This document shows, in pieces, positions 37,938 to 54,339 of a stretch of 64,000 nucleotides of DNA. This stretch comes from Candidatus Cloacimonadales bacterium. GTDB taxonomy: Bacteria > Cloacimonadota > Cloacimonadia > Cloacimonadales > JAIOQZ01. The position numbers were made by a program, and so were the translations under genes. The stretch spans positions 1,344,001 through 1,408,000 of the forward strand of contig OY762463.1 in the NCBI GenBank assembly GCA_963665815.1, read 5' to 3'. A model generated the notes under the pieces. It had not been told where the DNA came from and ran no database searches. It saw only the letters and a program-made list of their open reading frames with translations. Position 1 is the stretch's first letter. Each line of letters starts with the position of its first letter.

Positions 37938-38118
37938 AAATAACTCCTTTATTCTAAAAAATAATGTAATATTATGGCTAAACAAATAAAAAATTATACT
38001 GACTCATAAAGCATGTCTTAAATTTTGAATCATGACTCAGAATGGATTAATATAATCTGAAACTTGGATTTACGGTAATTTCTTGACATCTGAAAGCAAT
38101 AATGAAATTGATGCATTA

Positions 38119-38207
38119 TCGCCGAATAGTGTTACCTAAACATTTGCATGGAGCACTATCGATAGGGTTGTTCTGGAAACGGAACTGCCTCCCGTTTGGA
38201 AAGGCGA
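38119..38207 (+). ncRNA. Moco-family riboswitch lacking P3 (predicted tungsten-cofactor, Tuco, subtype)
   Basis: P1 UCGCC/GGCGA; P2 AUAGUGUU/AGCACUAU enclosing a CCUAA...AUGG tetraloop receptor; P4 AGGG..GUUCUG-GAAA-CGGAAC..CCU; 3' GCCUCCCGUUUGGAAAGG matching the moaA-leader consensus; no P3. Confidence 0.9.
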
Positions 38208-38265
38208 GGAAGAAATAACGTACAATTCGTATCTTTCTTGCCTTCAAAAAAATATTTTTTGGAGG
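38201..38265 (+). promoter_or_regulatory. Riboswitch expression platform (anti-sequestrator and SD sequestrator)
   Basis: 38201-38213 can pair with 38232-38244; alternatively CCUUCAAAAAA (38241-38251) pairs with UUUUUUGGAGG (38255-38265), covering the SD. Confidence 0.7.
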
Positions 38266-38269
38266 ATTA

Positions 38270-40099
38270 ATGAAAAAATTAAATCTTTTACTTTTAACGG
38301 CGTTACTTATGTTTATGCTTGCAATAGGTGCATGCAGCGAAGACGACAATGATGATAACAATAATGATGTTGTTGTTGAACCGACTTTTACTTTTACTAT
38401 GCCTGACAGCTCAGAACTCGCAATAAGCTTTATAGCTTCAGTTGTTGATTATGACGGTACAGATGTAACAGGTTATTCACTTGATCAATTTATTCCGGAA
38501 GATCCTTACGATCTTGAAATCTCCAGAGCTGTTGGCGATGATATTTTTGATGATGATGTGAGAAATCTTTTTGTTTACGAACTGCTTGGCGAAGATGGTT
38601 TTACACCTTATGAAAACGGTGAAAAACATCTTGCCTGGGAAGTATTCAAAACAGGATACTTTCTTCCAACTGAAAAATCCAAGGCATTCTTTGCAGATGA
38701 AGAAATTGTTAAAGCATATAATGTGAGATACTTGGATAAGTTTAACCTTTACAGAGCTTTCAGAGTCTCTAAAATGGATATAGAAACAACATTCTTAACA
38801 GGTGCATATTCAAATTCAAATGTTTCTTTCACTGATAGAAAAGATAATGCCGTAACCTACGAAGGCTTTAAACTTGAAGATATGATTAATCCTGATGTAA
38901 CAACCACTCCTGAGAACTACACTTACTACGTTGGTGCTGTTGACGGCTGGATTAATGACGATACAAACAACACATTCACATGGGCACAAATGCAGAATGC
39001 TTATTTCTTCCCTGAAGAAAACAGAGTATGCTTCATTGAAAACGGTACAGAAGTTTTCAAACCTGTAAAAAGCCCATACTCCATTGAACTTACCGAAACA
39101 AACCCTCCAAGTATTGCTGCCCCAACAGATCTTACTGTAAACACAGATTCAGACATCGTTCTTTCATGGACTGATAACAGTGACAACGAAACAGGTTTCA
39201 CAATTGAAAGAAAATACGATTCCGAAGATGCTTTTGTAGCTGTTGACAGCGTAGATGCCAATGTAACAACCTATACTGATACTAATGCAGATTTTGCTCA
39301 GCAAATTAAATACAGAGTCGCTGCACACAATTCAGAAGAAATGTCCTACTATACTAATGAAGTTACTTTAGATGCTTCAGCTACTCCACCAGCTCTGGCG
39401 GACACGACTAAAATCGCTGTTCAATTTGAGCTTGATTTCACAGATTTGTCTTCTTACACTTCAGAAACAATCACTGTTGAAGGTGCAGATGTAACTGCTT
39501 ATAAACTTGACCAGTTTATTGATCAGTCTGAAGTAACAGCTCTCTACGGTGAAGACGGTGTAGACTGTAGAGCATTCTACTGTTACCATCTTGTCGCTGC
39601 TGACAGCTGGTCACCAAGAGACAAAGATAACAGAGACCTTACATGGGCTGAATTCAGTTCAGGTTACTGGCTTGAAGGTGATCAGAAAGCTTACTTCCCA
39701 TCAGAGGATATTTCAAGACAGTTTGATGTGGGAGATCTTAAATATGTTAATCTTTATAACACAATAAACATCTCTGATGCAGATGGTAACCTCATCACTC
39801 CATTTGAATACTTGGGAGCTGAAACACAAAGCATTACTTATATTCACCATGAAGAAGAATACACAGAAGATGCTGTTCCTTTGACATCAATCATTACATC
39901 TTACGTTACAACTGACCCTGCAAGCTATACTTACGATTTTGCAGCAGCAGACGGTTGGGAAACAGATCCTGTAACTTGGGAAAACATGCAGAAAGGTTAC
40001 TGGCTTGTTAATGCAAACAAAGCTGTATTCATTGATGCAGCCGGAAATCAGGTTATTACCGGAATCAAAAGCGTTGTAGGAATTCAGTTAATACAGTAA
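38270..40099 (+). CDS. Acidic lipoprotein: two pairs of molybdopterin-binding-like domains around an FN3 domain
   Basis: Lipobox AIGA-C; four repeats of G(Y/F)xLxxxI...Y...AxDG(W/F)...W...GY(F/W)L...F; FN3 segment APTDL...LSWTDNSDNETGF..ER. Confidence 0.7.
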   Translation: MKKLNLLLLTALLMFMLAIGACSEDDNDDNNNDVVVEPTFTFTMPDSSELAISFIASVVDYDGTDVTGYSLDQFIPEDPYDLEISRAVGDDIFDDDVRNLFVYELLGEDGFTPYENGEKHLAWEVFKTGYFLPTEKSKAFFADEEIVKAYNVRYLDKFNLYRAFRVSKMDIETTFLTGAYSNSNVSFTDRKDNAVTYEGFKLEDMINPDVTTTPENYTYYVGAVDGWINDDTNNTFTWAQMQNAYFFPEENRVCFIENGTEVFKPVKSPYSIELTETNPPSIAAPTDLTVNTDSDIVLSWTDNSDNETGFTIERKYDSEDAFVAVDSVDANVTTYTDTNADFAQQIKYRVAAHNSEEMSYYTNEVTLDASATPPALADTTKIAVQFELDFTDLSSYTSETITVEGADVTAYKLDQFIDQSEVTALYGEDGVDCRAFYCYHLVAADSWSPRDKDNRDLTWAEFSSGYWLEGDQKAYFPSEDISRQFDVGDLKYVNLYNTINISDADGNLITPFEYLGAETQSITYIHHEEEYTEDAVPLTSIITSYVTTDPASYTYDFAAADGWETDPVTWENMQKGYWLVNANKAVFIDAAGNQVITGIKSVVGIQLIQ

Positions 40100-40100
40100 A

Positions 40101-40631
40101 ATGTTCAAAAAAAAACTCAAAACAATAGATATATTATATATTGCTGTTTTTGCAGCTTTAGGACTGGCGGTTAAACCAATCGTCAGTCCTCTTAACAAAC
40201 TGGTACCAATCCCCGGAGGTTCGCTTGCCGGTGGATTCTATATGATGTGGATGGCTATTGCCGTTGCTTGTGTCAAAAGATTCGGAACCGGATTGCTTTT
40301 CGGAGTAGTGCAAATGCTTGTTGTATTATCAATTGGCTTCTTCGGCAATCATGGATTAGTATCTTTGATCACATACACCCTCCCAGGACTGGTTATGGAC
40401 ATTGCAGGATTGTTCATGAAAACAGGAAAAAGTCCGGTTGAACAAGTTATTCTGTGCACAACAGGAAATATGACAGGTGCAGCAATCGTGGCATTTCTGG
40501 TTATGCGACTTGCAATGATACCTCTGATGATTTCACTTACCGCTGCTGCTGTTTCCGGAATAATTGGTGGACTGACATCATATTACATATTGAAACAACT
40601 ACAAAAATACGAACTTATGCAGGAATTATGA
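40101..40631 (+). CDS. ECF transporter S component (YkoE/HMP-thiamine-permease-like family)
   Basis: 176 aa, hydrophobic, D.LYIAVFAAL AxxxA motif, PGGSLAGGFYMMW; same operon as EcfA, EcfA' and EcfT. Confidence 0.8.
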   Translation: MFKKKLKTIDILYIAVFAALGLAVKPIVSPLNKLVPIPGGSLAGGFYMMWMAIAVACVKRFGTGLLFGVVQMLVVLSIGFFGNHGLVSLITYTLPGLVMDIAGLFMKTGKSPVEQVILCTTGNMTGAAIVAFLVMRLAMIPLMISLTAAAVSGIIGGLTSYYILKQLQKYELMQEL

Positions 40632-41527
40632 AAAAAATAATTATCTTATTAACTATAATGGCTGTTTTTATGAATATTGCCGCCTTAAAGGTAGGAAGCA
40701 AAGAATATTCTCTCGAAGCATTGAAAAAACTTGATCAGCAGAAAGTCAAAACAGAATATGAGAAAAGAGGTGAACTTAGAAAGAACACCTGGAGTGGCAT
40801 ACCTGTGAAACTTTTATTGAAAGAATCCGACATCTGGAAAGATAACTCTGAATTCGTGTTTCAGTCTGCTGACAACTATCTTGTAAGACTCAATTCGGAA
40901 GATCTACCATCTGACAAAGCAATAATCGCACTGACAAAAGATGGAGAAGAACTTGATGAAGAACATATCAGGCTTATTGTTAAGGACATGAGAGATATGT
41001 TCTGGATTCGTGGAATAGCAAAAATTTCAAGAACAGAACCCAATGAGATTCAATTACCGGAATATGTATTTAATGGAGAAAATTTCATTAAGATCTATAA
41101 TTTTGACAATGATCCCGGTAAGTTTAAAAACGATGAAGGCTATAAGCTTGCTGATTTTCTGAACAAAGCATTTCCATCAACTGAAGGTGAATTTACAATC
41201 TTCGGAAAAGATGGTGTTAATCACACACTGGATTTCGATCAATTTCTTAAAAATGCCCGAATCCTTAAAGATGAAAAGTCATTTTCACTCAAAAGTGAAG
41301 ATATGCCAGGTGGAATGTGGATTAAGAATCTGATATGCGTATTCCGAAACAATCGCGTTATATTCTTCACAACTAACTATGAAGAAGTAGAATCTGTATT
41401 TGCGAAAATCTTTGACAATAAGAAATTGGAATACAAAATCTATATGAATCTTGAAAACTCAGAAATCAATATTGATAAAGGTGAAGAAGCAGAATTATGG
41501 AAAAACGCTTTATTGTTCCGACAATAG
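40628..41527 (+). CDS. Periplasmic protein with two sulfite-oxidase-type molybdopterin-binding-like domains
   Basis: Start at ATG 40628 with signal peptide; WSGIPVKLLL..FVFQSADNY..IIAL.KDGEEL..IRLIV...FWIRGIAKI; second copy EGYKLADFL..GKDG..GMWIKNL. Confidence 0.7.
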   Translation: MKKIIILLTIMAVFMNIAALKVGSKEYSLEALKKLDQQKVKTEYEKRGELRKNTWSGIPVKLLLKESDIWKDNSEFVFQSADNYLVRLNSEDLPSDKAIIALTKDGEELDEEHIRLIVKDMRDMFWIRGIAKISRTEPNEIQLPEYVFNGENFIKIYNFDNDPGKFKNDEGYKLADFLNKAFPSTEGEFTIFGKDGVNHTLDFDQFLKNARILKDEKSFSLKSEDMPGGMWIKNLICVFRNNRVIFFTTNYEEVESVFAKIFDNKKLEYKIYMNLENSEINIDKGEEAELWKNALLFRQ

Positions 41528-42768
41528 CAGTAATTATTCTTGTACTTGTATCTGGATGCGGAAATAAAAATCTAAGAATCAACGGCAATCTTGATACCAG
41601 AATAATCATTTCCGAGAGTATACAGCTTAATGATGCTCTTAAAAGAGAAAGATTTGAGAACATACTTATTGAAGGCGACAACGGCGTTGCTGCATTAATT
41701 TCAGCAGATACTGCCAGAGAAATCGCAATTGAGAGATTAGAAAAAGGTTTTTCAGCTGATTCTGATGGGTTACCTCCTGTATGTAACATCAATAATATCT
41801 CAAGCATTTCAGTATATGCATCCTGTTACGATTACGAGATCAGATTTTTTGATGGGATAAATGAAATAGAGCGTCTCACTCCATTCAATTATATGATGAA
41901 AGAATTTGATTTTCTTGGAGAGTCCAGTAAAAATGGACATTCTGCCAGAAAATTCAAACGCAAATCGGATTATCTTCATAACTGGATGAAAGAAGATTCT
42001 ATTCTCGTCATAACTGAAAAAGAGACTAACAAAATACTGCAAAAACCAGAGTTCGAGGAGATTATCTTTGATGGTAAACAATTAGTTTATAATAATGAAA
42101 GAATAATTGGGCTATGGGCTAATCCTCCTCTCAGAATGGAGCAACTTACCGGTATCTTTGAGGATTCACTTGTTAACAGTAATTTAATGGTGATTTTCAT
42201 CGATGGTCTCGGAGTAAAATATATTGATCAGAACTCAGAAGCTGTAAAACTATTTACTGAAGACTATACTTTCAGTCCTCTGCTTTCAGCATACCCATCT
42301 AAGACAAAAAAAAATAGCTGGGTCATGATGTCTGGGAAAGATCATAAGCTTGAGGGAAGAAAAGTTCTGGAAGAATTTGAGGTTCACGAATCAATACTTG
42401 TTGAAGGAGATCATGTTTACAACACATCAGCTATTCCTATGATCCAATGTACTGATATGGATAAAGACGGATTCATTGATGAAGAGATTTTTGAAGCTGC
42501 TCGAGAGGCAGTCAAAAAGAAACCTGATTTTCTGATAGTACATTTCCACTCATTTGATGATTTTGGTCATGAAACAGGGGCATATTCTCCTGAAAGAGAT
42601 TCCATTCTTGCATTGAATTACAAATATGTTAAATCATTAACAGATAACTGGAATGGTAAAGTGATGCTTGTATCAGATCATGGAATGCACACAAAATCTA
42701 ATGGTAAAGGAACGCATGGAAGCCTTATGCTGGATGACATGTTGGCAATAAAAGGAGAAACAAAATGA
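41497..42768 (+). CDS. Lipoprotein with C-terminal alkaline-phosphatase superfamily (NPP-like) domain
   Basis: Lipobox LVSG-C; VIFIDGLG, YPSKT, HFHSFDDFGH..G, VSDHGMH, GTHG. Confidence 0.8.
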   Translation: MEKRFIVPTIAVIILVLVSGCGNKNLRINGNLDTRIIISESIQLNDALKRERFENILIEGDNGVAALISADTAREIAIERLEKGFSADSDGLPPVCNINNISSISVYASCYDYEIRFFDGINEIERLTPFNYMMKEFDFLGESSKNGHSARKFKRKSDYLHNWMKEDSILVITEKETNKILQKPEFEEIIFDGKQLVYNNERIIGLWANPPLRMEQLTGIFEDSLVNSNLMVIFIDGLGVKYIDQNSEAVKLFTEDYTFSPLLSAYPSKTKKNSWVMMSGKDHKLEGRKVLEEFEVHESILVEGDHVYNTSAIPMIQCTDMDKDGFIDEEIFEAAREAVKKKPDFLIVHFHSFDDFGHETGAYSPERDSILALNYKYVKSLTDNWNGKVMLVSDHGMHTKSNGKGTHGSLMLDDMLAIKGETK

Positions 42769-43166
42769 AATACATTATTGGTATACTTGTAGCTTTGATA
42801 TTACTTTTAACAGCACTGATTATGTACAAACAATCAGAGAAACTTGTTGATCTTGGTACCAGAATTCACTTTGATAAATACTATGCTCAAATGCAGAATA
42901 TCAAATCTGAAAAAGTTTCTTACAACGCTAAAGAATTAGAAGTTATCAAAGTTAATGATGTGCTTGGTTTATTCGAAGTAGACAAAAAAGGATTATCTTC
43001 CATCACATTCTTTGCCAATGATGGAGGTTCTTTGAAAGTTGATTCAAACGAACTGGATAACCTTTATTTACAGGCTATGGAAAACGGAACTTACAGACTT
43101 GTTATTCCGAGTGATCAATTTAAACAAAGATGGCTTAAAAACATTGCAAGTATAGAATGCCAGTAA
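42765..43166 (+). CDS. Membrane-anchored single molybdopterin-binding-like domain protein
   Basis: N-terminal TM; ITFFANDGG..., YRLVIPSDQFKQRWLKNIASIE. Confidence 0.65.
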   Translation: MKYIIGILVALILLLTALIMYKQSEKLVDLGTRIHFDKYYAQMQNIKSEKVSYNAKELEVIKVNDVLGLFEVDKKGLSSITFFANDGGSLKVDSNELDNLYLQAMENGTYRLVIPSDQFKQRWLKNIASIECQ

Positions 43167-43167
43167 A

Positions 43168-43833
43168 ATGTCATTGATCAGTATTTCCAATCTCAATTTC
43201 CGCTACAACCTTTCCGGAAATCATATTATACGTAACTTTTCAGCAGAATTGGAAAAGGGGAAAATTTATGGAATTTCAGGAGAGAGCGGTTCGGGAAAAT
43301 CTACTTTGTTAAAGCTTATTAGTGGAATTATACCGGAATACTTCAACGGAATCGTAGAAGGAATAGTAAAACTGGCAGATAAACCTGTTAAAGAATATGA
43401 ATCTTTCAATCTTGGTAAGACTCTGCAATTCGTTATGCAGGAACCTGATCATCAGTTGTTTCTGCCAACCGTACTGGATGAACTAATATTCAGCAGTGAA
43501 AACTACTCCTTTTCAAGAGAACAGATTCAGCAGAATCTAAACAGAGTATTAAATATATTTCCACTACAGGACTTTCTGAACACCTATACTAACAAATTGT
43601 CGTATGGCACCAAAAGACTGGTTAACATAGCATCAGCAGAGATGATAAGACCGGATATTATTATCATTGATGAACCTTTCAGTGGATTGTCAGGTAAAAT
43701 GATCACACTGCTTAAGAAGTTCTTCCTGCAGATTAAGTCTGATAACAGAACAGTGATACTGACAGATCATCATATTGAGAATGAAAATATATGTGATACC
43801 GTATTCTCCCCCGAAGATTTCTGTAAGGAATGA
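43168..43833 (+). CDS. ECF transporter ATPase (EcfA)
   Basis: GESGSGKST, GIIPEYFNG...G, Q-loop QEPDHQLF..TV.DEL, LSYG, IIDEPF. Confidence 0.85.
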   Translation: MSLISISNLNFRYNLSGNHIIRNFSAELEKGKIYGISGESGSGKSTLLKLISGIIPEYFNGIVEGIVKLADKPVKEYESFNLGKTLQFVMQEPDHQLFLPTVLDELIFSSENYSFSREQIQQNLNRVLNIFPLQDFLNTYTNKLSYGTKRLVNIASAEMIRPDIIIIDEPFSGLSGKMITLLKKFFLQIKSDNRTVILTDHHIENENICDTVFSPEDFCKE

Positions 43834-44459
43834 TTATGCTCAGAATAAGCAACCTTTCATGCGGATTCAAAGATAAACTTTTACTTAAAAACAGCAAATT
43901 AACGGCTGAACCTGGCAATATAATCAGGATTTCAGGAGATAACGGTATAGGTAAATCAACCTTTCTGCAATGCCTTATAGGGCTGCACGAAGCTTCCGAT
44001 GGTACAGTAATACTCAATTCAACTGATCTGCTTAACTCTCCTACTGAAAAATGTGCAGAAACTGTTTTCTACCAGAGACAGAAGCCCTATGACAATGTGC
44101 TGTTCACGACACCATTACAGGAAATGTGCTTTTTTACAGATCAGAACAAAGCTGAAGGCATACTGAAGAAATATAACCTTTATGAAGTTCGGAACTCACC
44201 TGTATGGAATCTCAGTTACGGGCAGGTAAAGAGAATCACTTTTAGTGTCATGGACACAATGAATAAAGAGCTGTATTTACTTGACGAGCCTTTTGCAGGT
44301 CTCGACAGAACCAATGCCGAAATTGTTGCTTCATCTGTTGATCAACTGGCTGGTAACGGAAAAATAGTAATTATTATAAGTCACAACGATAAAATTTGTT
44401 CTAACCTTAACGCAATAAAATTTGAAATAAGAAACAGGCAATTCATTGCTGTTGAATAG
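43830..44459 (+). CDS. ECF transporter ATPase (EcfA')
   Basis: GDNGIGKST, LSYGQVKR, LLDEPFAGLD, ISHN. Confidence 0.85.
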   Translation: MIMLRISNLSCGFKDKLLLKNSKLTAEPGNIIRISGDNGIGKSTFLQCLIGLHEASDGTVILNSTDLLNSPTEKCAETVFYQRQKPYDNVLFTTPLQEMCFFTDQNKAEGILKKYNLYEVRNSPVWNLSYGQVKRITFSVMDTMNKELYLLDEPFAGLDRTNAEIVASSVDQLAGNGKIVIIISHNDKICSNLNAIKFEIRNRQFIAVE

Positions 44460-44469
44460 AGGATATTAA

Positions 44470-46419
44470 ATGAAAAAACATGTAATTTTTGTGTGTATCT
44501 TTCTGATTACCTGTATGTTAGTTGCAGAAGATAACCAGAAAAAACCTGAATACGAAATGCAATATGTAAATGAGGATTCTACAAAACTTGTTAAAGTATA
44601 CAAAATGGAGAGCATCCGGGTTGTCGAAGCTAAATCAAAATCCAGCTTCAGTAAGCCTGTTATTAAAACGATCCCTGAAAATGAGAGTCCCAAAGACTTA
44701 CAGGCAGCAGATCTGCTTGAAGACATCAATGGTGTTGAACTGCAGACCGGAGGAAAAGACGGTCAACATATCAGCATCCGTGGTTTCAAACAATCTCAGA
44801 TCAAGATACTTGTTGATGGCAGACCTTATGGAAGCGGATACTTCGCGAACATAGATCTGAGTACAATTCCAGTCTCTGAGATTAAGGAAGTAAGAGTTAT
44901 AAAAGGGCCTGTAGCATCAGTATATGGTTCTGACACCATGGGCGGAGTTGTAAATATTATTACTAAATCTCCAGATGATAAGAAATGGGGTAATGTTGGA
45001 GTAATAGTTAAAAGAAATGTCACTAACAAGGAGTATATCTCTGTGTCCCACGATTTTGACTCATTTGATTTCTGGGTGTATGGCAGCAGAAATCAGAGAA
45101 CAGGATTCATGCTGTCTGAAGACTTTGAACCGACTCCGAATGAAAATGGTAATGTAAGAAATAACATGGATTCCGAACAATATGACTTCATGTCAAAATT
45201 TAATTACGAAGCAACTGAGAAACTCAATCTTGGATTAGATGCAAGCTTTTCCTATGCTGCAGACAAAGAGATTCCTTCCAGTATAGATGATAAACTATAC
45301 AGAAAATTCACAGATGTAAAAAGATTTCAGGAATCAGTTTTTGCAAAATATATGGTAAACGACTACTGGATATGTGATTTCAACAGTTATTTTGACTACA
45401 ATGAAGACAGCTATGCTGAGTACAGTGATGAAGATCTGACTGATATGAATTCCAGCTGGCCATCAAAACTGAAACACTCTACGCTTGGTTTTACACAGAA
45501 CAATACTTACACAATGCTGAATGAAAATGTTATAGCTTTTGGATTCCGTTTCGAGAACCAGACTTACAATCGAAAAGGTGGAACTAATTACGAAGACTGG
45601 GTTTCCAATAATTACTCTTACATTAACGGATTCCTCCAGTACACTCATAAGATTTCTGATTTCAGAATTATTGGAGGCACAGGAGTTTCCATGTTTACTC
45701 TTAACGATGAATTTGATTTCAATACTCATTTCGAACCGTCAATTTCCGTTAACTATTCTACTCAGAAAACGGAGAATTCAATAAGCTATGCAATAAATAC
45801 AAAATTTCCATCCCTGCAAAACCTTTACGGCAGTTCAAGCGGGAATGAAGATTTGACTGAGCAGAAAGCTCATAGAGCAGAATATTCATTCAGCTATTCA
45901 GATGTTATTAATACAGGTTCAGTAAGTGTCCCTGTGAACTATTCCACACAAGTTTTTTATAACAGGATTGAGGATGAGATTCAGGAAATAAATAACACAT
46001 ATGAAAATGTATCAGAATATGAGTCTTACGGTTTTGATTCAAGCCTGAAGTTTAAGCTTCTTACTTCTCACACAATAGAATACTCATTTCTTAAACTGCA
46101 TGACAGCCCGAAAGAGCTTCCGATTCCATCGAGAAACTCGGTAAAAGTTGTGGAGTCATATGAGTTTGAACCAATCAGAGATATGAAAGCTTCTGTTTTC
46201 GGTGAGTTTCAATACAAGGATATCGTAACAGACTTTGACTATGATGTTGTGGATGTAATCTCTCCATATTGGATTCTTAACTCAGGATTTAACACAAAGT
46301 TCCTGCAATACAAATTTTCATTTGAAGTTGAGAATATCCTGGATACAGACTATGAAACAAGAATCGGCTATCCAATGCCGGGAATCAACTACATATTGTC
46401 TATGGAGTACTCGTTTTAA
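44470..46419 (+). CDS. TonB-dependent outer-membrane receptor (BtuB/CirA-like)
   Basis: Signal peptide; plug ISIRGF...ILVDGRP...VIKGPVASVYGSDTMGGVVNIITK; C-terminal ENILD..Y....GYPMPG..Y....EYSF. Confidence 0.92.
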   Translation: MKKHVIFVCIFLITCMLVAEDNQKKPEYEMQYVNEDSTKLVKVYKMESIRVVEAKSKSSFSKPVIKTIPENESPKDLQAADLLEDINGVELQTGGKDGQHISIRGFKQSQIKILVDGRPYGSGYFANIDLSTIPVSEIKEVRVIKGPVASVYGSDTMGGVVNIITKSPDDKKWGNVGVIVKRNVTNKEYISVSHDFDSFDFWVYGSRNQRTGFMLSEDFEPTPNENGNVRNNMDSEQYDFMSKFNYEATEKLNLGLDASFSYAADKEIPSSIDDKLYRKFTDVKRFQESVFAKYMVNDYWICDFNSYFDYNEDSYAEYSDEDLTDMNSSWPSKLKHSTLGFTQNNTYTMLNENVIAFGFRFENQTYNRKGGTNYEDWVSNNYSYINGFLQYTHKISDFRIIGGTGVSMFTLNDEFDFNTHFEPSISVNYSTQKTENSISYAINTKFPSLQNLYGSSSGNEDLTEQKAHRAEYSFSYSDVINTGSVSVPVNYSTQVFYNRIEDEIQEINNTYENVSEYESYGFDSSLKFKLLTSHTIEYSFLKLHDSPKELPIPSRNSVKVVESYEFEPIRDMKASVFGEFQYKDIVTDFDYDVVDVISPYWILNSGFNTKFLQYKFSFEVENILDTDYETRIGYPMPGINYILSMEYSF

Positions 46420-46421
46420 CA

Positions 46422-47153
46422 ATGAAATCTCTGGATGTACGCACAAAAATATCTCTGGTAATGCTGGTTACATCACTATCGGTAATATATCAGAATCTTA
46501 TACTGCAGTCGGTTCTGCTGGCTGCAGCGTTTCTGCTTGTATTGCTTCTTGCTGAGACGAGAGAAGGACGCAAAGGAATGAGTCCTTTCAGAATGTTAAA
46601 GACTATTACTATTATCTTCTTTGCCCAAATATTTTTCAGGCAAACAGGAGACATCCTGTTTCAATACTCGTTTATAAAAATCACAACTGACGGACTCGTC
46701 TATGCAGGGAGTTCCACCAGTCGTCTTCTGATTATCTTCATGTCTGCTAAGATCCTGTTTGGTGTTCCTTTAACCGAGTTTGTCATAGCCTTTCGTAAAT
46801 GGAAGATTCCTTATGTAATCTCGTTTATGGTAGCAATGGTAATTCACCTGATTCCGGATTTCAGTCATAAAGTAAGAAATAAAATGGAACTGCTCAAAAT
46901 CCGTGGTCATGCCTTCGGTTCCATGTCTCTCTCAGAGAAGATTAAGATAATCTCAAGAATCATTGTCCCGATTGTAGGCGAAGCACTCTCTCAGGCACGC
47001 TACAGAGTTGTATCTCTGGAAATGCGAGGATTTCACAGCTCCGGTAGACGCACCTACTTTAAAGACAAATCACTCTCCCCTATTGACTATGCTATTCAGA
47101 TTCCTGTTCTTGTTGTGTTTGTGGCTGGGATTGTCGGAGGTTTTCAAATGTAA
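46422..47153 (+). CDS. ECF transporter T component (EcfT/CbiQ)
   Basis: LDVRTK start, TM helices, two conserved Arg motifs (KIRG, EMRGF). Confidence 0.88.
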   Translation: MKSLDVRTKISLVMLVTSLSVIYQNLILQSVLLAAAFLLVLLLAETREGRKGMSPFRMLKTITIIFFAQIFFRQTGDILFQYSFIKITTDGLVYAGSSTSRLLIIFMSAKILFGVPLTEFVIAFRKWKIPYVISFMVAMVIHLIPDFSHKVRNKMELLKIRGHAFGSMSLSEKIKIISRIIVPIVGEALSQARYRVVSLEMRGFHSSGRRTYFKDKSLSPIDYAIQIPVLVVFVAGIVGGFQM

Positions 47154-48036
47154 TTCCCTGATTATGCCATGCACTTGGATGTGATTCTGTTTCAAAGTAA
47201 ATGATGTTTTTATTTTTAGTTTCATTTAATAGAGTCCGAATTGCATCTCTTACTTGGACAAAACATGTCTTATTATTCCCAGATTTACTTCTAGTGCATG
47301 CATTAACAATAATTTGGAGATTTTCTCCACCAAGATAATCTTTCATTCTAACAAGAAATTTTTCTTTCTGACCTTTTTCAAATAGGAAGTTCCACACATT
47401 ATTTCTCACAGACTTATCTATACCATTCTTATGAATATAGTTCAATGATGCTTGAAGTTGTACTGGATTGCTTATAATAACGCTTATTTTGTTTGGCAAA
47501 TCATGATTGTTTTCTTTGCATTTATTAATTAGTTTTGGCAATATATAATACTGAAATTTGCACATGAAATAGTTATCTATATTATCTCCAGTGTTTTTCA
47601 TAGCTGGTCCGATTGGTTCAAAGTTTTCATCAAATTCATGTTCATGAGGTGATTCTATAATCAATATGCATTTCACCGGGCTAATATCTGCATGATCGCA
47701 ATTATCATCCCCAAATCGATTATTGAAATATGGATTACAATCGTTACTATAAAGATCAGACTCATATTGGTTTTGACCATTTACCCTATAAATATCATAT
47801 CTCCACACATCAGGTACTTTTTTTCTGAAGAAATCTTCATTCACAACATATATATTATTATTATCTTTTTTGATATAACGACATCTCTCAATGTTTTCTA
47901 AAACTTCCTCTGAGTTTTTATCTTTAATATTATATTCAATAGTCATTTCATTTCCATTGTATTTCAATTTAAAATTTAATGAGTTTAATTTCCCATTTTT
48001 CTTGGAACTCTTTACTTTTTTAATACTCATTATCAC
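47092..48036 (-). CDS. Hypothetical protein, possible uracil-DNA-glycosylase-like fold
   Basis: ILIIESPH.HEF...GPA...TG, N.VQLQAS and C-terminal HPSAW resemble UDG motifs A and B; very AT-rich. Confidence 0.45.
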   Translation of the reverse strand: MIMSIKKVKSSKKNGKLNSLNFKLKYNGNEMTIEYNIKDKNSEEVLENIERCRYIKKDNNNIYVVNEDFFRKKVPDVWRYDIYRVNGQNQYESDLYSNDCNPYFNNRFGDDNCDHADISPVKCILIIESPHEHEFDENFEPIGPAMKNTGDNIDNYFMCKFQYYILPKLINKCKENNHDLPNKISVIISNPVQLQASLNYIHKNGIDKSVRNNVWNFLFEKGQKEKFLVRMKDYLGGENLQIIVNACTRSKSGNNKTCFVQVRDAIRTLLNETKNKNIIYFETESHPSAWHNQGITFENLRQSQPQTQQEQESE

Positions 48037-48093
48037 TCCCTTTTATTTATTTCCTCAATCTCCACATAAATCATATTTATTATCAAATGTTTT

Positions 48094-48777
48094 TTATTTC
48101 CTTACCCTCACCACTGCATCTGCACTGCCGTAACCAAGATTTTTCACCCCGGAATCACTTTCCAGAATGTACTCAACCAGTGGATTCTCCACTCCGGCAA
48201 TATTAAGGAACAATTCTGCCAGAACAATATGAGATAAATCTGTTCCGGTGATAATCAGCTCAGTGGGATCTAGTTTATTGCTATGCCCCAGCATAAACAC
48301 AGGTAAATAGTCCGATTCCCCTTGAGCTTTGTACTTCTGCAGAGGATACTTACCTGCAATAGCCTTATTGTATGTATATGAAATATGACCTGCGTGATAA
48401 CTGTCTATAATACAATTTCGGCTGTAGTTGTCTGCACTGAGTTTGATAGACTTAATCCTGCTCAGTGGATTTTCCAGAATAATCCTGCTTTCTGTCCCTT
48501 CATCCTGATAGGGAGGTAAAGAATCGTTATCCCGATGAAAAACCGTGTTGAGAATCCAGAGTGCCAGATTCCTGTAAGACTTCTGACTAAGATGGAAGTC
48601 AAATTTGTGCTTTCTGTAATAAGTGCTTATATTTGCAGATTTGACATCAATAATCATCTCTTTATCCGTGTATAGGTGCTCACAAGGGCTCCACCCGGTA
48701 GATACTCTTATGCTATCAAACCTGCTGTTGAAATTGTTTTCAAAAAGTTTGTCGAATATGGAATTAAAGCTATTCAT
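48094..48777 (-). CDS. Hypothetical protein, paralog of 48770-49468 (Imm32-like C-terminus)
   Basis: Start moved to ATG 48777 (GGAG-type SD); shares F.LS....RNL.L.IL..VF and I.G...S.I.LA...LNI motifs with its neighbour. Confidence 0.6.
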   Translation of the reverse strand: MNSFNSIFDKLFENNFNSRFDSIRVSTGWSPCEHLYTDKEMIIDVKSANISTYYRKHKFDFHLSQKSYRNLALWILNTVFHRDNDSLPPYQDEGTESRIILENPLSRIKSIKLSADNYSRNCIIDSYHAGHISYTYNKAIAGKYPLQKYKAQGESDYLPVFMLGHSNKLDPTELIITGTDLSHIVLAELFLNIAGVENPLVEYILESDSGVKNLGYGSADAVVRVRK

Positions 48778-49468
48778 CGTCTCCCTCCACAACCCCAGAT
48801 ATAATAAAGCATAGTTCTGTACTGTCAGGACCAACCCCTCCCAGATTTTCATCGGAGTCCAGATAGAATTCCTTATGTTGTACATTATCCTGTGATATAT
48901 TCAGCAGGAAATCAGCCAGAGCAATCATTGACTTAGCACTTCCTTCTATTTTTGCAATATCTCTATCAAACCAGTCTTCTTCTGTGTCAATATAGCCTTT
49001 GGAGTTAGTTAAATGGATTACCGGAAGCTGATTTCTGGGATAAAAGTCTTTGGAATAATAGTAGTTCACAATATTCGGATTTTCTTCAAATTTATAGTAT
49101 AATGGTCTTGATTTATAGCCTTTCAGGAGTTCATCCTCATCCTTTCCATTATACCTGATAATGATTTTATGGATGTCATTATTCTCATTATGCAGATTTA
49201 TGGTCATCTCGTTGACTGAATCACTGAATACAACTGCCAGTATAGCCAGACCAAGATTTCGTGCATTTTCTGCAGACAGTTCAAACTTGATATATCCGCG
49301 CATACTGGAAGCTTCACCTACATTGCAGTCTGATACAGTCCTGATCAGATAATCTTCCATTTCTGTCTCTGGAGTCAGGATATCAGGTTCAAACTCCAGA
49401 TTGTAGTACTCAGATTTAAACTCTTCTTCGAACACATTGTTAAACCATTCATTGAAGTCAGTTATCAT
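48770..49468 (-). CDS. Hypothetical acidic protein (Imm32-like C-terminus)
   Basis: GGAGG SD; IEGSAKSMIALADFLLNIS...EFYLD...GVGPDSTEL. Confidence 0.6.
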   Translation of the reverse strand: MITDFNEWFNNVFEEEFKSEYYNLEFEPDILTPETEMEDYLIRTVSDCNVGEASSMRGYIKFELSAENARNLGLAILAVVFSDSVNEMTINLHNENNDIHKIIIRYNGKDEDELLKGYKSRPLYYKFEENPNIVNYYYSKDFYPRNQLPVIHLTNSKGYIDTEEDWFDRDIAKIEGSAKSMIALADFLLNISQDNVQHKEFYLDSDENLGGVGPDSTELCFIISGVVEGDDE

Positions 49469-49611
49469 TTATTCCTCCGACCTTCAGCACACTAAGTTAA
49501 CAGGAATTGTCAATTTAATTATATCTTCTATCTATATCCGAACTATCACTTATCATTTTTTGTTTGACAACGATTACCAGTTCTATTCACGTATGCCACA
49601 AGGGAGATAAT

Positions 49612-50802
49612 ATGAAATCTAAATTCTTATTGATTGTATTACTCATCTTGTGCCCTTGCCTGATGTTCTCACAAGTGATAAGGGAAAGAAAACCTGATCC
49701 CTTCACAAAACCGACTCAGGAAATGGTTACCATAGAAAGAGTAATTAATAACTTGATTGTCAAAGATAATCCTGACGATGCAGGATCGGCAATATTACTT
49801 ACATGGCAAGTTGATGAAGAAAATCTTGAAGGCATTAAATTCATCAGAATCAGACGTGCTGAACCGGGTAAAGATTTTATTGATATTACCAAAGAAGATC
49901 CATCCACAACAAAATTTCTGGATACTCAGAATATTCAGGATGGAGTAACTTACAGATATACTGTCGAACTTGTTGGTTTTATGAATAAAACCTATGCACT
50001 GGAAGGTAGTGAAGCTGTTTCCAAGGCTCAATGGTTTAATCATTCCAAACTACCTATTCTGATAATGCTTCTTCTGCTTAGTGCTGCAATAATCTACTAC
50101 ATTCTATCAGCCAAGAGCGGAAAAGATCTTTACATCAGAAGAATCAGCGGACTTGACTCCATGGACGAAGCTGTTGGACGTGCTACCGAGATGGGACAAC
50201 CAATCTTGTTTGTTCCCGGCATCAATGACCTTGATGATATCCAGACTCTTGCAGGTCTTACTATCCTGGGTCAGCTTGCCCAGAAAACAGCAGAATATGA
50301 TGCCGAGATTCTCGTTCCTGTTTCCAAGTCGATGGTAATGTCCACAGCAAGAGAAGTTGTGAAAGAAGCATATCTTAAAGCAGGGAGATCCGACTCATTC
50401 AATCCTGATTGTGTATTCTACCTTACTGATGATCAGTTTGGATTTGTTGCCGGAGTAGATGGTATTATGGTCAGAGAAAAACCTGCTGCGAATTTCTTCC
50501 TCGGTGCTTTTTATGCAGAATCCCTGATTCTTGCCGAGACCGGTTTCTCAAGCGGATCAATCCAAACCGCCGGAACAGCGATGCCAAGTCAGCTGCCATT
50601 CTTTGTTGCAGCGTGTGACTATACACTTATTGGGGAAGAACTGTTTGCTGCCTCAGCTTACCTTTCCAAAGATCCGCATCAACTGGGAAGTCTTAAAGGA
50701 CAGGATATTGGAAAAGCATTGTTTATCATTGTCGTAATTATTGGAATTACCCTGGAAATTGCCGGATATAGCGGTTTTAAGAATTTCCTGATGGGATTAT
50801 AA
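49612..50802 (+). CDS. FN3 + DUF6754-like membrane protein
   Basis: Start at ATG 49612 (GGGAG SD); signal peptide, FN3-like domain, TM, IRRISGL...DEAVGRATEMG.P, AESLILAE.G, QLPFFVAACDYTLIGEELFAASAYL. Confidence 0.75.
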   Translation: MKSKFLLIVLLILCPCLMFSQVIRERKPDPFTKPTQEMVTIERVINNLIVKDNPDDAGSAILLTWQVDEENLEGIKFIRIRRAEPGKDFIDITKEDPSTTKFLDTQNIQDGVTYRYTVELVGFMNKTYALEGSEAVSKAQWFNHSKLPILIMLLLLSAAIIYYILSAKSGKDLYIRRISGLDSMDEAVGRATEMGQPILFVPGINDLDDIQTLAGLTILGQLAQKTAEYDAEILVPVSKSMVMSTAREVVKEAYLKAGRSDSFNPDCVFYLTDDQFGFVAGVDGIMVREKPAANFFLGAFYAESLILAETGFSSGSIQTAGTAMPSQLPFFVAACDYTLIGEELFAASAYLSKDPHQLGSLKGQDIGKALFIIVVIIGITLEIAGYSGFKNFLMGL

Positions 50803-50812
50803 GGGAGAATTT

Positions 50813-51499
50813 ATGAAAAGACGAATACCTTTACTGATAACATTCTTTATTGGATTGATCATCATATTATCAAACTTTATCCCTCATAAGCCATTTGGTC
50901 AGATTCAATCCAGTCTGGAAACCTGGTTTATTATTATCTCTTCATTTGCAATTGTGCTGGGTAACCTGAACTTACTTAAAATGAACTTTTTGAAAATCAA
51001 ATATAAACAGACAAACTGGAAGTACTATATATTCACTGTTGCCAGCTTCTTCCTGATGATAATTCTCGGACTTGTCTGGGGAACTAAAAGTCAGGCTGGT
51101 ATGGCAGGACATGGTGAAGCGATCACGGCTGTACTTGGAGCGAAGCCTTTTGACTACCTTTTCAGCAATGTCTATGAACACCTGCAGGCAACTATGTTTT
51201 CGCTGCTGGCATTCTATATAGCATCAGCTGCCTACAGAGCTTTTGTGGGAAGATCTATAGAATCCAATCTTCTGCTCGGAGCGGCAATACTGGTGATGCT
51301 GGGAAATACAAGTATAGGAACATTCCTTACTGCTAAACTTCCTCCGTTTCTGCAGCTTTCACTGATAACAGAATTTATTATGAAGTACCTCAATACTGCC
51401 GGTCAACGTGCTATAATGATTTGTGCCGGGCTGGGTATTATCGGAAGTTCACTCCGTATTATCATCGGAATTGAACGTTCTTATCTGGGAGGTGAGTAA
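50813..51499 (+). CDS. Conserved membrane protein of the DUF6754 module
   Basis: About 6 TMs; ATMFSLLAFYIASAAYRAF, AGQRAI, LRIIIGIERSYLG. Confidence 0.75.
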   Translation: MKRRIPLLITFFIGLIIILSNFIPHKPFGQIQSSLETWFIIISSFAIVLGNLNLLKMNFLKIKYKQTNWKYYIFTVASFFLMIILGLVWGTKSQAGMAGHGEAITAVLGAKPFDYLFSNVYEHLQATMFSLLAFYIASAAYRAFVGRSIESNLLLGAAILVMLGNTSIGTFLTAKLPPFLQLSLITEFIMKYLNTAGQRAIMICAGLGIIGSSLRIIIGIERSYLGGE

Positions 51500-52320
51500 T
51501 GAATAAAGCACTTTTGACTCGCAGAATAATTTTCACACTGATGTTCCTCGGAGTTCTGCTTCCACTTATATTCAAAATCGGTCTCCCTGTTGTAACCACG
51601 GAAAACGTGAGAAACGTGCATAAACTGGTTGAGTCAGCTAAACCAGGAGATAGAGTTATCTTCTCATTTGACTTTGATCCTGCTTCCAAACCTGAACTCT
51701 ATCCCATGGTTAAATCCCTTATGAAGCACTGCTTCGACAAACAGATCAATATTGTTGCAGTTGCCTTATGGCCCATGGGTGTCCAAATGTGTGATGATGC
51801 TTATAAAGAACTCAAAGTAGATTATCCACAGATTGAGTATGGAAAAAACTTTGCCAATCTTGGATACAAAACAGGCGGTATTGTTACTCTCCAGAAAATG
51901 GGTAAAGACTTCAGAGACATTTTTCCTAAGGATCAGGAAGGGACATCAATTGATGAACTTGAAATAATGAATGGAGTAACAAACTTCAACGCCTTCAGTT
52001 TTGCTGTTTCCTTTTCTGCCGGTGTACCGGGGATAACAGACTGGGTTATGGTTGGTCATGATGAATACAAGCTCAGGGTTGCCGGATGTACAACCGCGGT
52101 AAATGCCCCTACAATCATGCCTTATATAAATGAACAGAATCAGCTGATCGGACTACTTGGTGGTCTTAAAGCTGCCGCAGAATATGAAAAGCTGATTGAT
52201 ACTCCTGGAAATGCAACTCAGGGAATGGATGCTCAATCGATTGCCCATCTCGTTATCATTGCATTCATTGTCATAAATAATATCAACTACTGGCGTAATA
52301 AGAAAAGGGAGGAAAAGTAA
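51499..52320 (+). CDS. Membrane-anchored protein of the DUF6754 module
   Basis: TM, DFDPASKPEL.P, YGKNFANLGYK.G, GLLGGLKAAAEYE, MDAQSIAH, C-terminal TM. Confidence 0.75.
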   Translation: MNKALLTRRIIFTLMFLGVLLPLIFKIGLPVVTTENVRNVHKLVESAKPGDRVIFSFDFDPASKPELYPMVKSLMKHCFDKQINIVAVALWPMGVQMCDDAYKELKVDYPQIEYGKNFANLGYKTGGIVTLQKMGKDFRDIFPKDQEGTSIDELEIMNGVTNFNAFSFAVSFSAGVPGITDWVMVGHDEYKLRVAGCTTAVNAPTIMPYINEQNQLIGLLGGLKAAAEYEKLIDTPGNATQGMDAQSIAHLVIIAFIVINNINYWRNKKREEK

Positions 52321-52321
52321 C

Positions 52322-52987: not shown

Positions 52988-53740
52988 ATGAAAGTTTTTT
53001 GTGTTGCCGGTTATCATCATACCGGAAAAACGTCTATGACTGTAGCTCTGTTACGTGAGCTGAGAAAAAGAGGATTCTCCGTAAGTTCAATCAAGGATAT
53101 TCATAACGAACAGTTTACAATGGAGAAACCTGGGTCAAACTCCTGGAGACACTGGGAAGCAAGTCAGTCCACAGTTATTGCCAGAGGTTTAACTGAGACA
53201 TACCAGATATGGCATGAACAGCTTAATCTGATACAGATGCTGAGTCATCTCGACTCTGAATACGTGATTGTTGAAGGAATGAAGTCAGCAGCCCTCCCAA
53301 AAGTAATCTGCGCAGAATCTGAAGAACAGCTGGAAGAACTCGTTGACGGCAGAACTATTGCCATTGCCGGTAAATATTCTGATAATCACGATTCATATAA
53401 ACATCTGATGTGTTATAATCATGCAAAAGATGCTGCAGCTCTTGCTGATCTTGTGATTGAAAAAGTTTTTGAAGTGCTTCCTCAAGCTGAACCGGAATGC
53501 TGCTCAAACTGCGGGTTAAACTGTCATGAAATGGTTTCAGCTATTCTGAGTGGCGAGAAAACCAGAGATGATTGTAAAACTGATAGAAACGAAGATATAG
53601 AAGTTCTTATTAACGGAAAAAAGCTTAACATTGTTCCTTACGTACAGAACACGTTTAAAGATGTAGTTGTTGCTTTTTTACTTAATCTCAAAGGGGTTAC
53701 CAAAGACTCCGATATTGAAATAAAAATCAGGCAGAAATAA
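52988..53740 (+). CDS. mobB: Molybdopterin-guanine dinucleotide biosynthesis protein B with C-terminal Fe-S domain
   Basis: Walker A GYHHTGKT, V.SIKDIH, VIVEGMK, CCSNCGLNC...C cluster. Confidence 0.8.
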   Translation: MKVFCVAGYHHTGKTSMTVALLRELRKRGFSVSSIKDIHNEQFTMEKPGSNSWRHWEASQSTVIARGLTETYQIWHEQLNLIQMLSHLDSEYVIVEGMKSAALPKVICAESEEQLEELVDGRTIAIAGKYSDNHDSYKHLMCYNHAKDAAALADLVIEKVFEVLPQAEPECCSNCGLNCHEMVSAILSGEKTRDDCKTDRNEDIEVLINGKKLNIVPYVQNTFKDVVVAFLLNLKGVTKDSDIEIKIRQK

Positions 53741-53742
53741 TA

Positions 53743-54339
53743 TTGAAATCAGAATTATACTTTGACTATGAAAATCTTATAGTTGTTAAAACAGTAAACA
53801 CAAAAGAAGAATATAATAAGGAAATGCTTGTTTACGGCAGGCATTTCTCTTTTGTCCCGGAAATTATAAATCGTGATGATGAACTTTCTTTTTCCATGGA
53901 AATGATTCAAGGGCATAACATTAGCGAAGGTTCAGACTTTCATGTGATCGGTGAACACTTTTCTCAATTGCACTCTGTAAAATCCGGTGATTTATCTCTG
54001 TGTCATCAGGACACAAATCCCAAGAACTACATGTATTCACTTGGGGAATACTATTTCATAGATTTTGCTGAGTCTGACTTTAATTACCCGGAGTATGATC
54101 TTATTCATTTTCTGTTGTTTTGGGCTGAAATCGCCGAAGCTGAAGCATTTAAGACCATTATAAACAACTTTATAAAAGGTTATAAAAGAAAAGGTAAGAT
54201 TTGTAAGAATAAGTGGACTGAATTGTTTCCGCAAATCGTACAGATGTTTGATGATCGCAGACTGAAATATGAAAAACCAAATATCATCTCTGAAAACACT
54301 CAGATCAACAGAAAACGAATTGAAATGTACAAGGTGTAA
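53743..54339 (+). CDS. APH/choline-kinase-like phosphotransferase
   Basis: F.QLH, LCHQDTNPKNY (HxDxxxxN), FIDF, PEYDL; TTG start. Confidence 0.7.
   Translation: MKSELYFDYENLIVVKTVNTKEEYNKEMLVYGRHFSFVPEIINRDDELSFSMEMIQGHNISEGSDFHVIGEHFSQLHSVKSGDLSLCHQDTNPKNYMYSLGEYYFIDFAESDFNYPEYDLIHFLLFWAEIAEAEAFKTIINNFIKGYKRKGKICKNKWTELFPQIVQMFDDRRLKYEKPNIISENTQINRKRIEMYKV

Follow-up and report, generated by a model that had tools for sequence, protein, structure and literature searches.

A riboswitch and nine coupled genes in a Cloacimonadales genome

The window analysed here, 64,000 nucleotides of a Candidatus Cloacimonadales bacterium (assembly GCA_963665815.1, contig OY762463.1, positions 1,344,001 to 1,408,000), carries an operon of nine genes, g1 to g9, behind a riboswitch of the class associated with the molybdenum cofactor (Moco) and the tungsten cofactor (Tuco, or Wco). 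The genes encode an outer-membrane receptor, an energy-coupling factor (ECF) transporter and four accessory proteins. An original prediction, made from the sequence, took the operon for a route by which Moco, Wco or a pterin precursor is captured outside the cell and imported across both membranes. It described nine closely coupled genes, and this layout holds: all nine are on the plus strand and are separated by 1-10 nt or overlap by 4-31 nt, with the flanking genes on both sides on the minus strand.

The aptamer spans positions 38108..38222 on the plus strand. An Rfam scan matches it to RF01055 over the full model (1-135) with 61.6 bits against a gathering score of 36 (E 2.2e-12), the sole Rfam match at gathering score within the window. 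The Moco-family riboswitch was thus correctly recognised; its start was placed at 38119, which lies 11 nt inside the aptamer. The columns of the P3 hairpin are deleted in the alignment to RF01055, as they are in the other three aptamers of the genome, making four P3-less aptamers overall. Such P3-less aptamers are tied to the tungsten cofactor in passages of Regulski 2008 (PMC2408646). Covariation in 51 homologous leaders backs the structure: 94.1% of the cells are paired and double changes occur in 10 of 18 pairs, values that lean towards the structure because the alignment was fitted to the model; none of 500 shuffles equalled the observed level, and slid controls were 30-46% paired.

The leader folds predict an expression platform at 38202..38265 (plus strand). 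When the whole leader is folded, the 3' strand of P1 (~38202-38214) pairs with 38232-38244 and the Shine-Dalgarno sequence (38261-38265) is free; when the P1 strand is withheld, which mimics a closed P1, 38241-38251 pairs with 38255-38265 and masks it. These predicted alternatives would suit an uptake operon that is shut off at the level of translation, and we infer the direction of the switch from them. Promoter and terminator scans at both ends of the operon returned nothing relevant to it above shuffled expectation.

Four of the genes encode the transporter. g2 (40101..40631, 176 aa) is an S component of the YkoE-like family PF09819 (32.4 bits), g9 (46422..47153) a T component (EcfT; CbiQ, PF02361, 60.5 bits), and g6 (43168..43833) and g7 (43830..44459) are the ATPases EcfA and EcfA' (ABC_tran, 86.5 and 74.9 bits). 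With PF09819, PF02361 and two PF00005 domains in one operon, a set that recurs in related loci, these genes qualify by their domain content as the gene set of a group I (dedicated) ECF transporter. The S component has 124 homologues, mostly from Cloacimonadota, and 343 in species-representative genomes; it matches no NCBIfam model. A profile of its family finds no chain among the PDB sequences at E <= 1, which places it far from the S components of solved structure. The best NCBIfam model for g6 is ECF_ATPase_1 (121 bits, under the cut-off of 315); for g7 it is a CcmA-type model, with ECF_ATPase_2 scoring 65 bits.

The outer-membrane receptor is g8 (44470..46419, 649 aa), a TonB-dependent protein with a Plug domain (69.7 bits) followed by a beta-barrel; TonB-B12 and haem-receptor models align over residues 78-649, the TonB-B12 model itself over 80-649. 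We considered membership in the BtuB family and rejected it: g8 scores 110.6 bits against 599.7 (TIGR01779) and 98 against 836 (NF007926), far under the cut-offs of these equivalogs. As judged from these matches, g8 would resemble a BtuB-type receptor in its working yet stand outside that family.

Accessory proteins with a cysteine-less sulfite oxidase-type fold

The remaining genes encode a surface lipoprotein (g1, 38270..40099, 609 aa), an anchored or periplasmic protein (g3, 40628..41527, 299 aa), a lipoprotein with a domain of the alkaline phosphatase (AlkP) superfamily (g4, 41497..42768, 423 aa) and a small membrane-anchored protein (g5, 42765..43166, 133 aa). Their translations show lipoboxes in g1 and g4 and a single N-terminal hydrophobic anchor in g3 and g5. 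The mechanical open reading frame (ORF) of g3 begins at 40454; the start at 40628, overlapping the g2 stop codon, was chosen because it fits the homologues. Neither g1 nor g5 has a significant Pfam or NCBIfam family.

The original prediction saw domains resembling the molybdopterin-binding fold of sulfite oxidase (SUOX) in four products. For g1, g3 and g5 this is supported by profile comparisons and structural models, which point to a SUOX/PruR-like fold of the pterin-binding type. g3 consists of such a domain and a second beta domain; it matches PF00174 (Oxidored_molyb) with 29.7 bits against a cut-off of 24, and Foldseek pairs its AlphaFold2 (AF2) model (pLDDT, the model's per-residue confidence score, of 88) with SorA (E 1.7e-6), PruR (7kom, TM 0.70 on the PruR length) and YedY. 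hhalign aligns g5 with the N-terminal domain of g3 at 98.9% probability (E 1.4e-17), which makes the two paralogous. g1 contains two SUOX/PruR-like modules linked by an FN3-like segment; in other genomes it is mostly a single module of ~270-310 aa, duplicated here and in the closest relative. Comparison of a g1 module with 48,161 chains by VIA-align gives a top ten made up entirely of SUOX or PruR structures (Z 9.9-6.5, the best being SoxC at 9.9; next match 5.3). The AF2 model of module 2 (pLDDT 92) has PruR as its top five Foldseek matches, at weak E-values of 0.03-0.1, and g1 aligns with g5 at an hhalign probability of 85.6%.

These domains do not look like enzymes. No column reaches 30% Cys in alignments of g3 (44 sequences) or g5 (38 sequences) built from homologues gathered in 80 related loci, the lipobox Cys is the sole Cys of the g1 modules, and no twin-arginine signal is visible in g3 or g5. 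Exported molybdenum enzymes are therefore unlikely for g3 and g5. The Mo-ligating cysteine is a conserved feature of SUOX enzymes that is missing in PruR, a periplasmic pterin binder, according to sections of a 2026 review (PMC13259868); because that cysteine is absent, we kept g1, g3 and g5 out of the SUOX enzyme family.

A fourth SUOX-like domain, considered at the N terminus of g4, is not supported: hhalign gives it 18% against g3 and 27% against g1, and the latter match spans the signal peptide only. This N-terminal domain is nonetheless kept in 36 of 36 homologues, while the AlkP domain is found in 11 of the 36 and is an optional part of the system. In g4 it occupies the C-terminal third of the protein and matches PF01663 (Phosphodiest) with 45.9 bits against 23, over profile positions 147-229; judged by eye, its metal-site and nucleophile motifs are presumably intact.

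g1 and g8 travel together. Among the 36 loci in which both could be evaluated (32 further loci could not), the two are jointly present in 21, jointly absent in 14 and split in 1, and this co-occurrence in 35 of 36 fits a receptor paired with a surface lipoprotein. We propose that g1 is the cofactor-capture partner of g8.

The riboswitch recurs before related operons

A covariance model built from the four aptamers of this genome was searched against the 80 related loci. In 51 of them an aptamer immediately precedes the first gene of the operon, on the same strand, so that the S component does co-occur with the Moco riboswitch, a check that the original prediction had called for. The spacing between aptamer and S gene follows the gene content: 18-360 nt where g1 is missing, ~910-1090 nt with a single-module g1 and ~2000 nt with a two-module g1. 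The Rfam model confirmed all 11 of the matches that were re-tested, and P3 is absent from the four leader alignments shown (4/4).

Among the 29 loci that gave no match, the sequence upstream is shorter than 100 nt in 5 and measures 399 nt or more in 24. A relaxed search of all 29 produced two weak matches (E 0.08 and 2.4), and a full Rfam scan of nine of them found no other riboswitch. Thiamine pyrophosphate (TPP) or B12 riboswitches, which would have spoken for a different vitamin, did not appear in any of 20 homologous loci that were scanned with Rfam. The system's core within the phylum comprises the S component, a g3- and/or g5-type protein, A, A' and T. The anticipated association with Oxidored_molyb-like genes is observed, that with AlkP genes in some loci only, as the 11 of 36 g4 homologues illustrate.

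Cofactor use without cofactor synthesis

The genome, a single contig of 3.96 Mb with 36% G+C and a completeness of 98.66%, encodes users of the cofactor: three genes of the aldehyde ferredoxin oxidoreductase (AOR) family, recognised by AFOR_N, and an alpha subunit of formate dehydrogenase (TIGR01591, 794 bits), whose gene neighbours selA and a NuoF-like gene. We found no match in this closed genome to MoaC, the MoaA C-terminal domain (Mob_synth_C), MoeA_N or MoaE, although each of these searches was positive in 11 of 14 control reference genomes. The genome therefore combines tungsten or molybdenum enzymes with a lack of moaA and moaC matches, which is the combination that the original prediction anticipated. 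The closed genome likewise gave no match to MogA/MoaB, its lone MoCF_biosynth match being CinA, or to a Mod/Tup/Wtp binding protein, the lone PBP_like_2/SBP_bac_11 match being PstS of pstSCAB. Genes of the late steps are kept: a MobA-like gene beside SelB and an FdhD-like gene, a MocA/DVU_1551-like gene and a MobB-like gene.

The other three aptamers of the genome also precede genes of interest. One lies ~5 nt before the start codon of an AOR gene (G000:C1:2623925-2627069, L099; G000 is this genome), which is followed by a MoaD-family gene (92 aa) and a ThiF/MoeB-like gene (229 aa) without MoaE. Two others stand before NAD-type aldehyde dehydrogenases (G000:C1:716557-718383, L100, and G000:C1:2875521-2877337, L101); of this pair, one is an L-piperidine-6-carboxylate dehydrogenase (781 bits) and one an L-glutamate gamma-semialdehyde dehydrogenase (789 bits). 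By analogy with B12 riboswitches, which govern B12-independent isozymes, the two dehydrogenases look like tungsten-independent stand-ins for AOR that would be repressed when the cofactor is available.

Complementary occurrence of transporter and pathway genes across the phylum

We surveyed 158 Cloacimonadota genomes with a completeness of at least 90%; they are related rather than independent, and the pattern recurs in ten of the sixteen family groups sampled. Of these genomes, 119 have the S component (one weakly; 118 in the cross-tabulation), 116 have AFOR_N (one weakly; 115 in the cross-tabulation), 14 have MoaC and 12 have MoeA_N. One hundred genomes have S and AOR without MoaC, 3 have all three, 14 have S alone and 1 has S and MoaC. 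Among the genomes without S, 8 have MoaC and AOR, 2 MoaC alone, 4 AOR alone and 26 none of the three. AOR holders thus have S in 103 of 115 cases (100 without MoaC), MoaC only in 8 and neither in 4: transporter or pathway is present in 111 of 115, the transporter alone in 100, and AOR is absent from 26 of the 30 genomes that lack both S and MoaC. Four genomes in a single contig, G000, G004, G072 and G087, are all positive for S and AOR and negative for MoaC and MoeA.

The genes that gave no match bear on a first alternative, in which a metal-free precursor, molybdopterin (MPT) or cyclic pyranopterin monophosphate (cPMP), is imported and the metal inserted inside by an unrecognised route. cPMP is the most stable intermediate of the pathway, a dephosphorylated pterin as the imported form would be in keeping with the extracellular AlkP domain and with the kinase-like gene next to the MobB-like one, and the MoaD-family and ThiF/MoeB-like genes beside the riboswitch-controlled AOR could hint at sulfur transfer. 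However, the closed genome has no MoaE, MoeA_N, MogA/MoaB or Mod/Tup/Wtp binding protein, without which, by what is established of the pathway, cPMP conversion and metal insertion would be impossible, and MoeA_N occurs in 2 of the 118 S-positive genomes. We regard import of a metal-free precursor as unlikely.

The same survey speaks to a second alternative: an ECF-type importer of tungstate or molybdate, whose riboswitch would do no more than signal that enough cofactor is present, a role it has before tupABC and modABC operons. Some ECF systems import metal ions (CbiMNQO, NikMNQO), and four of five tested genomes outside the phylum that have an S homologue also have MoaC and so make MPT. P3-less and P3-containing Moco RNAs, moreover, are often found before oxyanion transporters, as parts of Regulski 2008 (PMC2408646) report. 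Against this, MoaC is absent here and from 114 of the 118 S-positive Cloacimonadota genomes, which leaves no pterin for an oxyanion to load, and the accessory proteins have a pterin-binding fold rather than an oxyanion-binding one. Genomes of the phylum that synthesise the cofactor de novo instead use ModA/Wtp-like binding proteins: strong matches (E <= 1e-40) occur in 8 genomes, 7 of them positive for both MoaC and MoeA, with the gene often beside MoeA. An oxyanion substrate is accordingly quite improbable.

Related systems outside the phylum

Homologues of the S component with 39-43% identity occur in records of Clostridia, Syntrophomonas and Anaerovoracaceae and in a Thermotogaceae bin. A riboswitch is seen in three of the six annotated loci outside the phylum (L081, L083 and L086). 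These loci, mostly from Bacillota/Clostridia, encode SLH-anchored Oxidored_molyb proteins, an AlkP-type protein, a small Oxidored_molyb protein, A, A', T and MobB, together with FMN_bind and Fer4_5 membrane proteins. In two of them we noted a Fer4_5 and FMN_bind membrane protein and FMN_bind-Oxidored_molyb fusions (L083:8276-9454, L083:6699-8279 and L086:366-1427). The Fer4_5/FMN_bind proteins suggest electron delivery to the outside, perhaps keeping a captured pterin reduced. In one Anaerovoracaceae locus (L084:13643-17460) a purple acid phosphatase replaces the AlkP-type gene, and an SLH protein carries a domain related to Shr-like haem binding.

A third explanation would have the SUOX-fold proteins bind a small non-MPT pterin, of the neopterin or monapterin type, or make up a redox system outside the cytoplasm that has nothing to do with cofactor supply. 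Among small proteins of solved structure the nearest are PruR proteins, one with neopterin bound, and the FMN_bind and Fer4_5 membrane proteins suggest electron transfer. This explanation sits poorly with the Moco/Tuco aptamer that governs the operon, with an operon presence that tracks AOR and the absence of MoaC, and with the MobB-like gene that follows EcfT in 13 loci; the lack of a conserved Cys and of a twin-arginine signal in g3 and g5 argues against exported molybdenum enzymes. We give it the least credence of the explanations considered.

Neighbouring genes in the window

The MobB-like gene encodes a MobB-domain protein of 250 aa (52988..53740, plus strand; PF03205, 68.8 bits) and lies 5.8 kb downstream of EcfT here, at most 200 nt downstream of it in 5 Cloacimonadota and 8 outside-phylum loci, the latter mostly from Bacillota/Clostridia. 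The family is above cut-off in 123 of the 158 phylum genomes and absent from the S-less families f6 and g11. Its product is probably an associated factor for handling the cofactor in the cytoplasm. Beyond the P-loop domain its C-terminal half is Cys-rich, with a CC-x2-C-x3-C pattern that may be a metal or cluster site. The next gene encodes an APH/choline-kinase-like protein of 198 aa (53743..54339, plus strand; PF01636, 30.6 bits), homologues of which follow the MobB-like gene in four loci (L026, L028, L036 and L039). It could, speculatively, be a kinase for the imported molecule.

Positions 49564-52987 hold a highly conserved cluster of four genes, DUF6754 followed by products of 228, 273 and 221 aa, for which several membrane segments are predicted. 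This cluster adjoins EcfT in many loci, and we considered it as a further part of the system. It was rejected as conserved synteny because PF20539 is also found in genomes without S or AOR: it occurs with 1-4 paralogues per genome in 151 of the 158 Cloacimonadota genomes, S-less and AOR-less ones included, and in none of the 14 control genomes, so that the cluster appears to be a hallmark of the phylum. Between EcfT and the cluster, three minus-strand ORFs (47092-49468; 314, 263 and 232 aa) have no Pfam match. They may be an insertion, as EcfT and the DUF6754 cluster adjoin in many relatives.

A proposed salvage route and the evidence against it

We propose that the operon encodes a two-membrane salvage route for the MPT-based tungsten or molybdenum cofactor, with a probability of about 0.65. 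The import route that the original prediction had put forward is thereby supported by the riboswitch, the folds and the gene content of genome and phylum, from which we infer the transported molecule. Each of the computational checks suggested with that prediction turned out in its favour. Uptake probably takes place at the metal-loaded MPT stage. A metal-loaded species is favoured because the genome has no pterin synthesis, no metal insertase and no oxyanion transporter, because genes of the MobA, MobB and FdhD types are kept, and because a sensor of the cofactor itself regulates the operon.

In the proposed mechanism, g1 would capture extracellular cofactor through its cysteine-less SUOX/PruR-type domains and hand it over to g8. 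Once in the periplasm, the labile pterin would be held by the SUOX-type proteins g3 and g5, both anchored, and by the lipoprotein g4, whose AlkP-type domain may serve to trim dinucleotide or phosphate forms. The ECF transporter (S g2, T g9, ATPases g6 and g7) would then move the cofactor into the cytoplasm, where the retained MobA-like, MobB-like and FdhD-like enzymes would fit it to the AOR-family enzymes and formate dehydrogenase. This order of hand-over is the one that the predicted locations and folds suggest. When cofactor is plentiful, the P3-less riboswitch would close P1 and the downstream hairpin would hide the ribosome-binding site. With an AlkP domain outside and a kinase-like gene inside, there is speculative room for a cycle of dephosphorylation, import and rephosphorylation, or for dinucleotide trimming.

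Several observations weigh against such a salvage route. The pocket of PruR is described as too small for Moco in sections of the 2026 review (PMC13259868). Of the 75 loci with evaluable upstream sequence, 24 have no riboswitch. In this genome the best matches of the MobA-like, FdhD-like and MocA-like genes score under curated cut-offs, which counts against the proposal for the first two, and the MoaD-family and ThiF/MoeB-like genes that follow the first AOR without MoaE have no ready place in the proposal. Gene absence was judged by Pfam models, so that non-orthologous replacements are possible, and the phylum genomes are mostly metagenome bins. Four S-positive Cloacimonadota genomes also have MoaC, the S-positive genome G094 has strong ModA-like genes, and 14 S-positive genomes are without AOR, the one family of tungsten or molybdenum enzymes surveyed there. 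Outside the phylum, S components at 39-43% identity could carry a different substrate, and the MoaC found in 4 of 5 tested genomes implies that the system does not always replace synthesis; in those genomes it would supplement synthesis, or its substrate may differ.

A broader claim, to which we assign somewhat less than even chances, is that most Cloacimonadota treat the tungsten or molybdenum pterin cofactor as a vitamin. They would have lost its whole synthesis, metal insertion included, and would take up the cofactor intact and with its metal across two membranes, passing it along a relay of cysteine-less SUOX-fold proteins to an ECF transporter. Such a system would be without precedent both as a bacterial Moco/Wco importer and as an ECF importer dependent on extracytoplasmic binding proteins, and the cofactor would be exchanged between cells in anaerobic communities. 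Moco and Wco are generally held to be too unstable to share and to be made by every user, and ECF importers normally work without extracytoplasmic binding proteins, unlike the operon described here. At the level of abstracts, our literature search found no bacterial Moco importer and no cofactor auxotrophy in Cloacimonadota, in agreement with the original prediction, which knew of no characterised bacterial importer; the sole published uptake among these records is that of dietary Moco in nematodes. How pterins cross bacterial membranes is stated as unknown in the consulted part of the 2026 review (PMC13259868).

If the proposal is true, metabolic reconstructions of Cloacimonadota and of many anaerobic Bacillota/Clostridia would change, and tungsten and molybdenum cofactors would join the traded 'vitamins' of syntrophic communities such as those of anaerobic digesters. 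It would also provide candidate proteins for stabilising and carrying the cofactor and widen the range of ECF transporter mechanisms. With this operon come a well-delimited set of genes, a definite prediction and a host that would be a natural auxotroph.

Comparison with known systems

The closest parallel in organisation is B12 salvage in diderm bacteria, which combines a B12 riboswitch, BtuB, the surface lipoprotein BtuG in Bacteroides and BtuFCD or ECF-CbrT. In both systems a cofactor-sensing riboswitch shuts off the operon (here as predicted), a TonB-dependent receptor with a surface lipoprotein is followed by a dedicated ATP-driven importer in the inner membrane, the hosts use a cofactor without making it, and isozymes that do without the cofactor, putative ones in this genome, are controlled by the same class of riboswitch at other sites. 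The best NCBIfam model for g8 is TonB-B12, far under its cut-off. The systems differ in the riboswitch (RF01055 here) and the S component (PF09819 here), in the binders, which have a SUOX/PruR fold here whereas BtuG has a beta-propeller fold, and in the presumed substrate, here an oxygen-labile metal-dithiolene pterin.

YkoEDC, a group I ECF system for thiamine or hydroxymethylpyrimidine, shares the PF09819 S component, its own S component YkoE being the protein after which that family is modelled, and the arrangement of S, T and two ATPases in a cofactor-riboswitch operon. The riboswitch is of the Moco/Tuco rather than the TPP class here (no TPP riboswitch in 20 loci).

Among solved structures, PruR ranks first or close to first as a match to both g3 and g1, and like their domains it is small and exported, has the SUOX fold and lacks the Mo-ligating cysteine. 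It is known from Agrobacterium, Vibrio and Klebsiella (PDB 7kom, 7kou, 7kp2 and 7rkb), signals to a diguanylate cyclase/phosphodiesterase and binds monapterin-type pterins, as set out in parts of two papers (PMC11194511, PMC13259868). By contrast, the domains described here are encoded in a transporter operon under a Moco/Tuco riboswitch and come in lipoprotein, anchored and multi-domain forms; the operon holds no DcpA-type regulator gene, the wider neighbourhood not having been searched for one. The regulons of Regulski 2008 have the same aptamer family, the P3-less subtype and hosts with tungsten-type enzymes in common with ours, and the targets named there, supplementary lists aside, are moa, moe, mod and tup genes and molybdenum or tungsten enzymes, with neither an ECF/TonB operon nor NAD-dependent aldehyde dehydrogenases among them (PMC2408646, in part).

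The relatives outside the phylum invite comparison with another kind of system. In the haem relays of Gram-positive bacteria, Isd/Shr surface proteins with NEAT domains feed an ABC importer; the SLH wall-anchored proteins similarly repeat one cofactor-binding fold and are encoded upstream of a membrane importer, although the fold is SUOX rather than NEAT, the cofactor is another one and the importer is of the ECF type. The system described here contributes a diderm form, with an arm of receptor and surface lipoprotein, and a phylum-wide pattern of auxotrophy.

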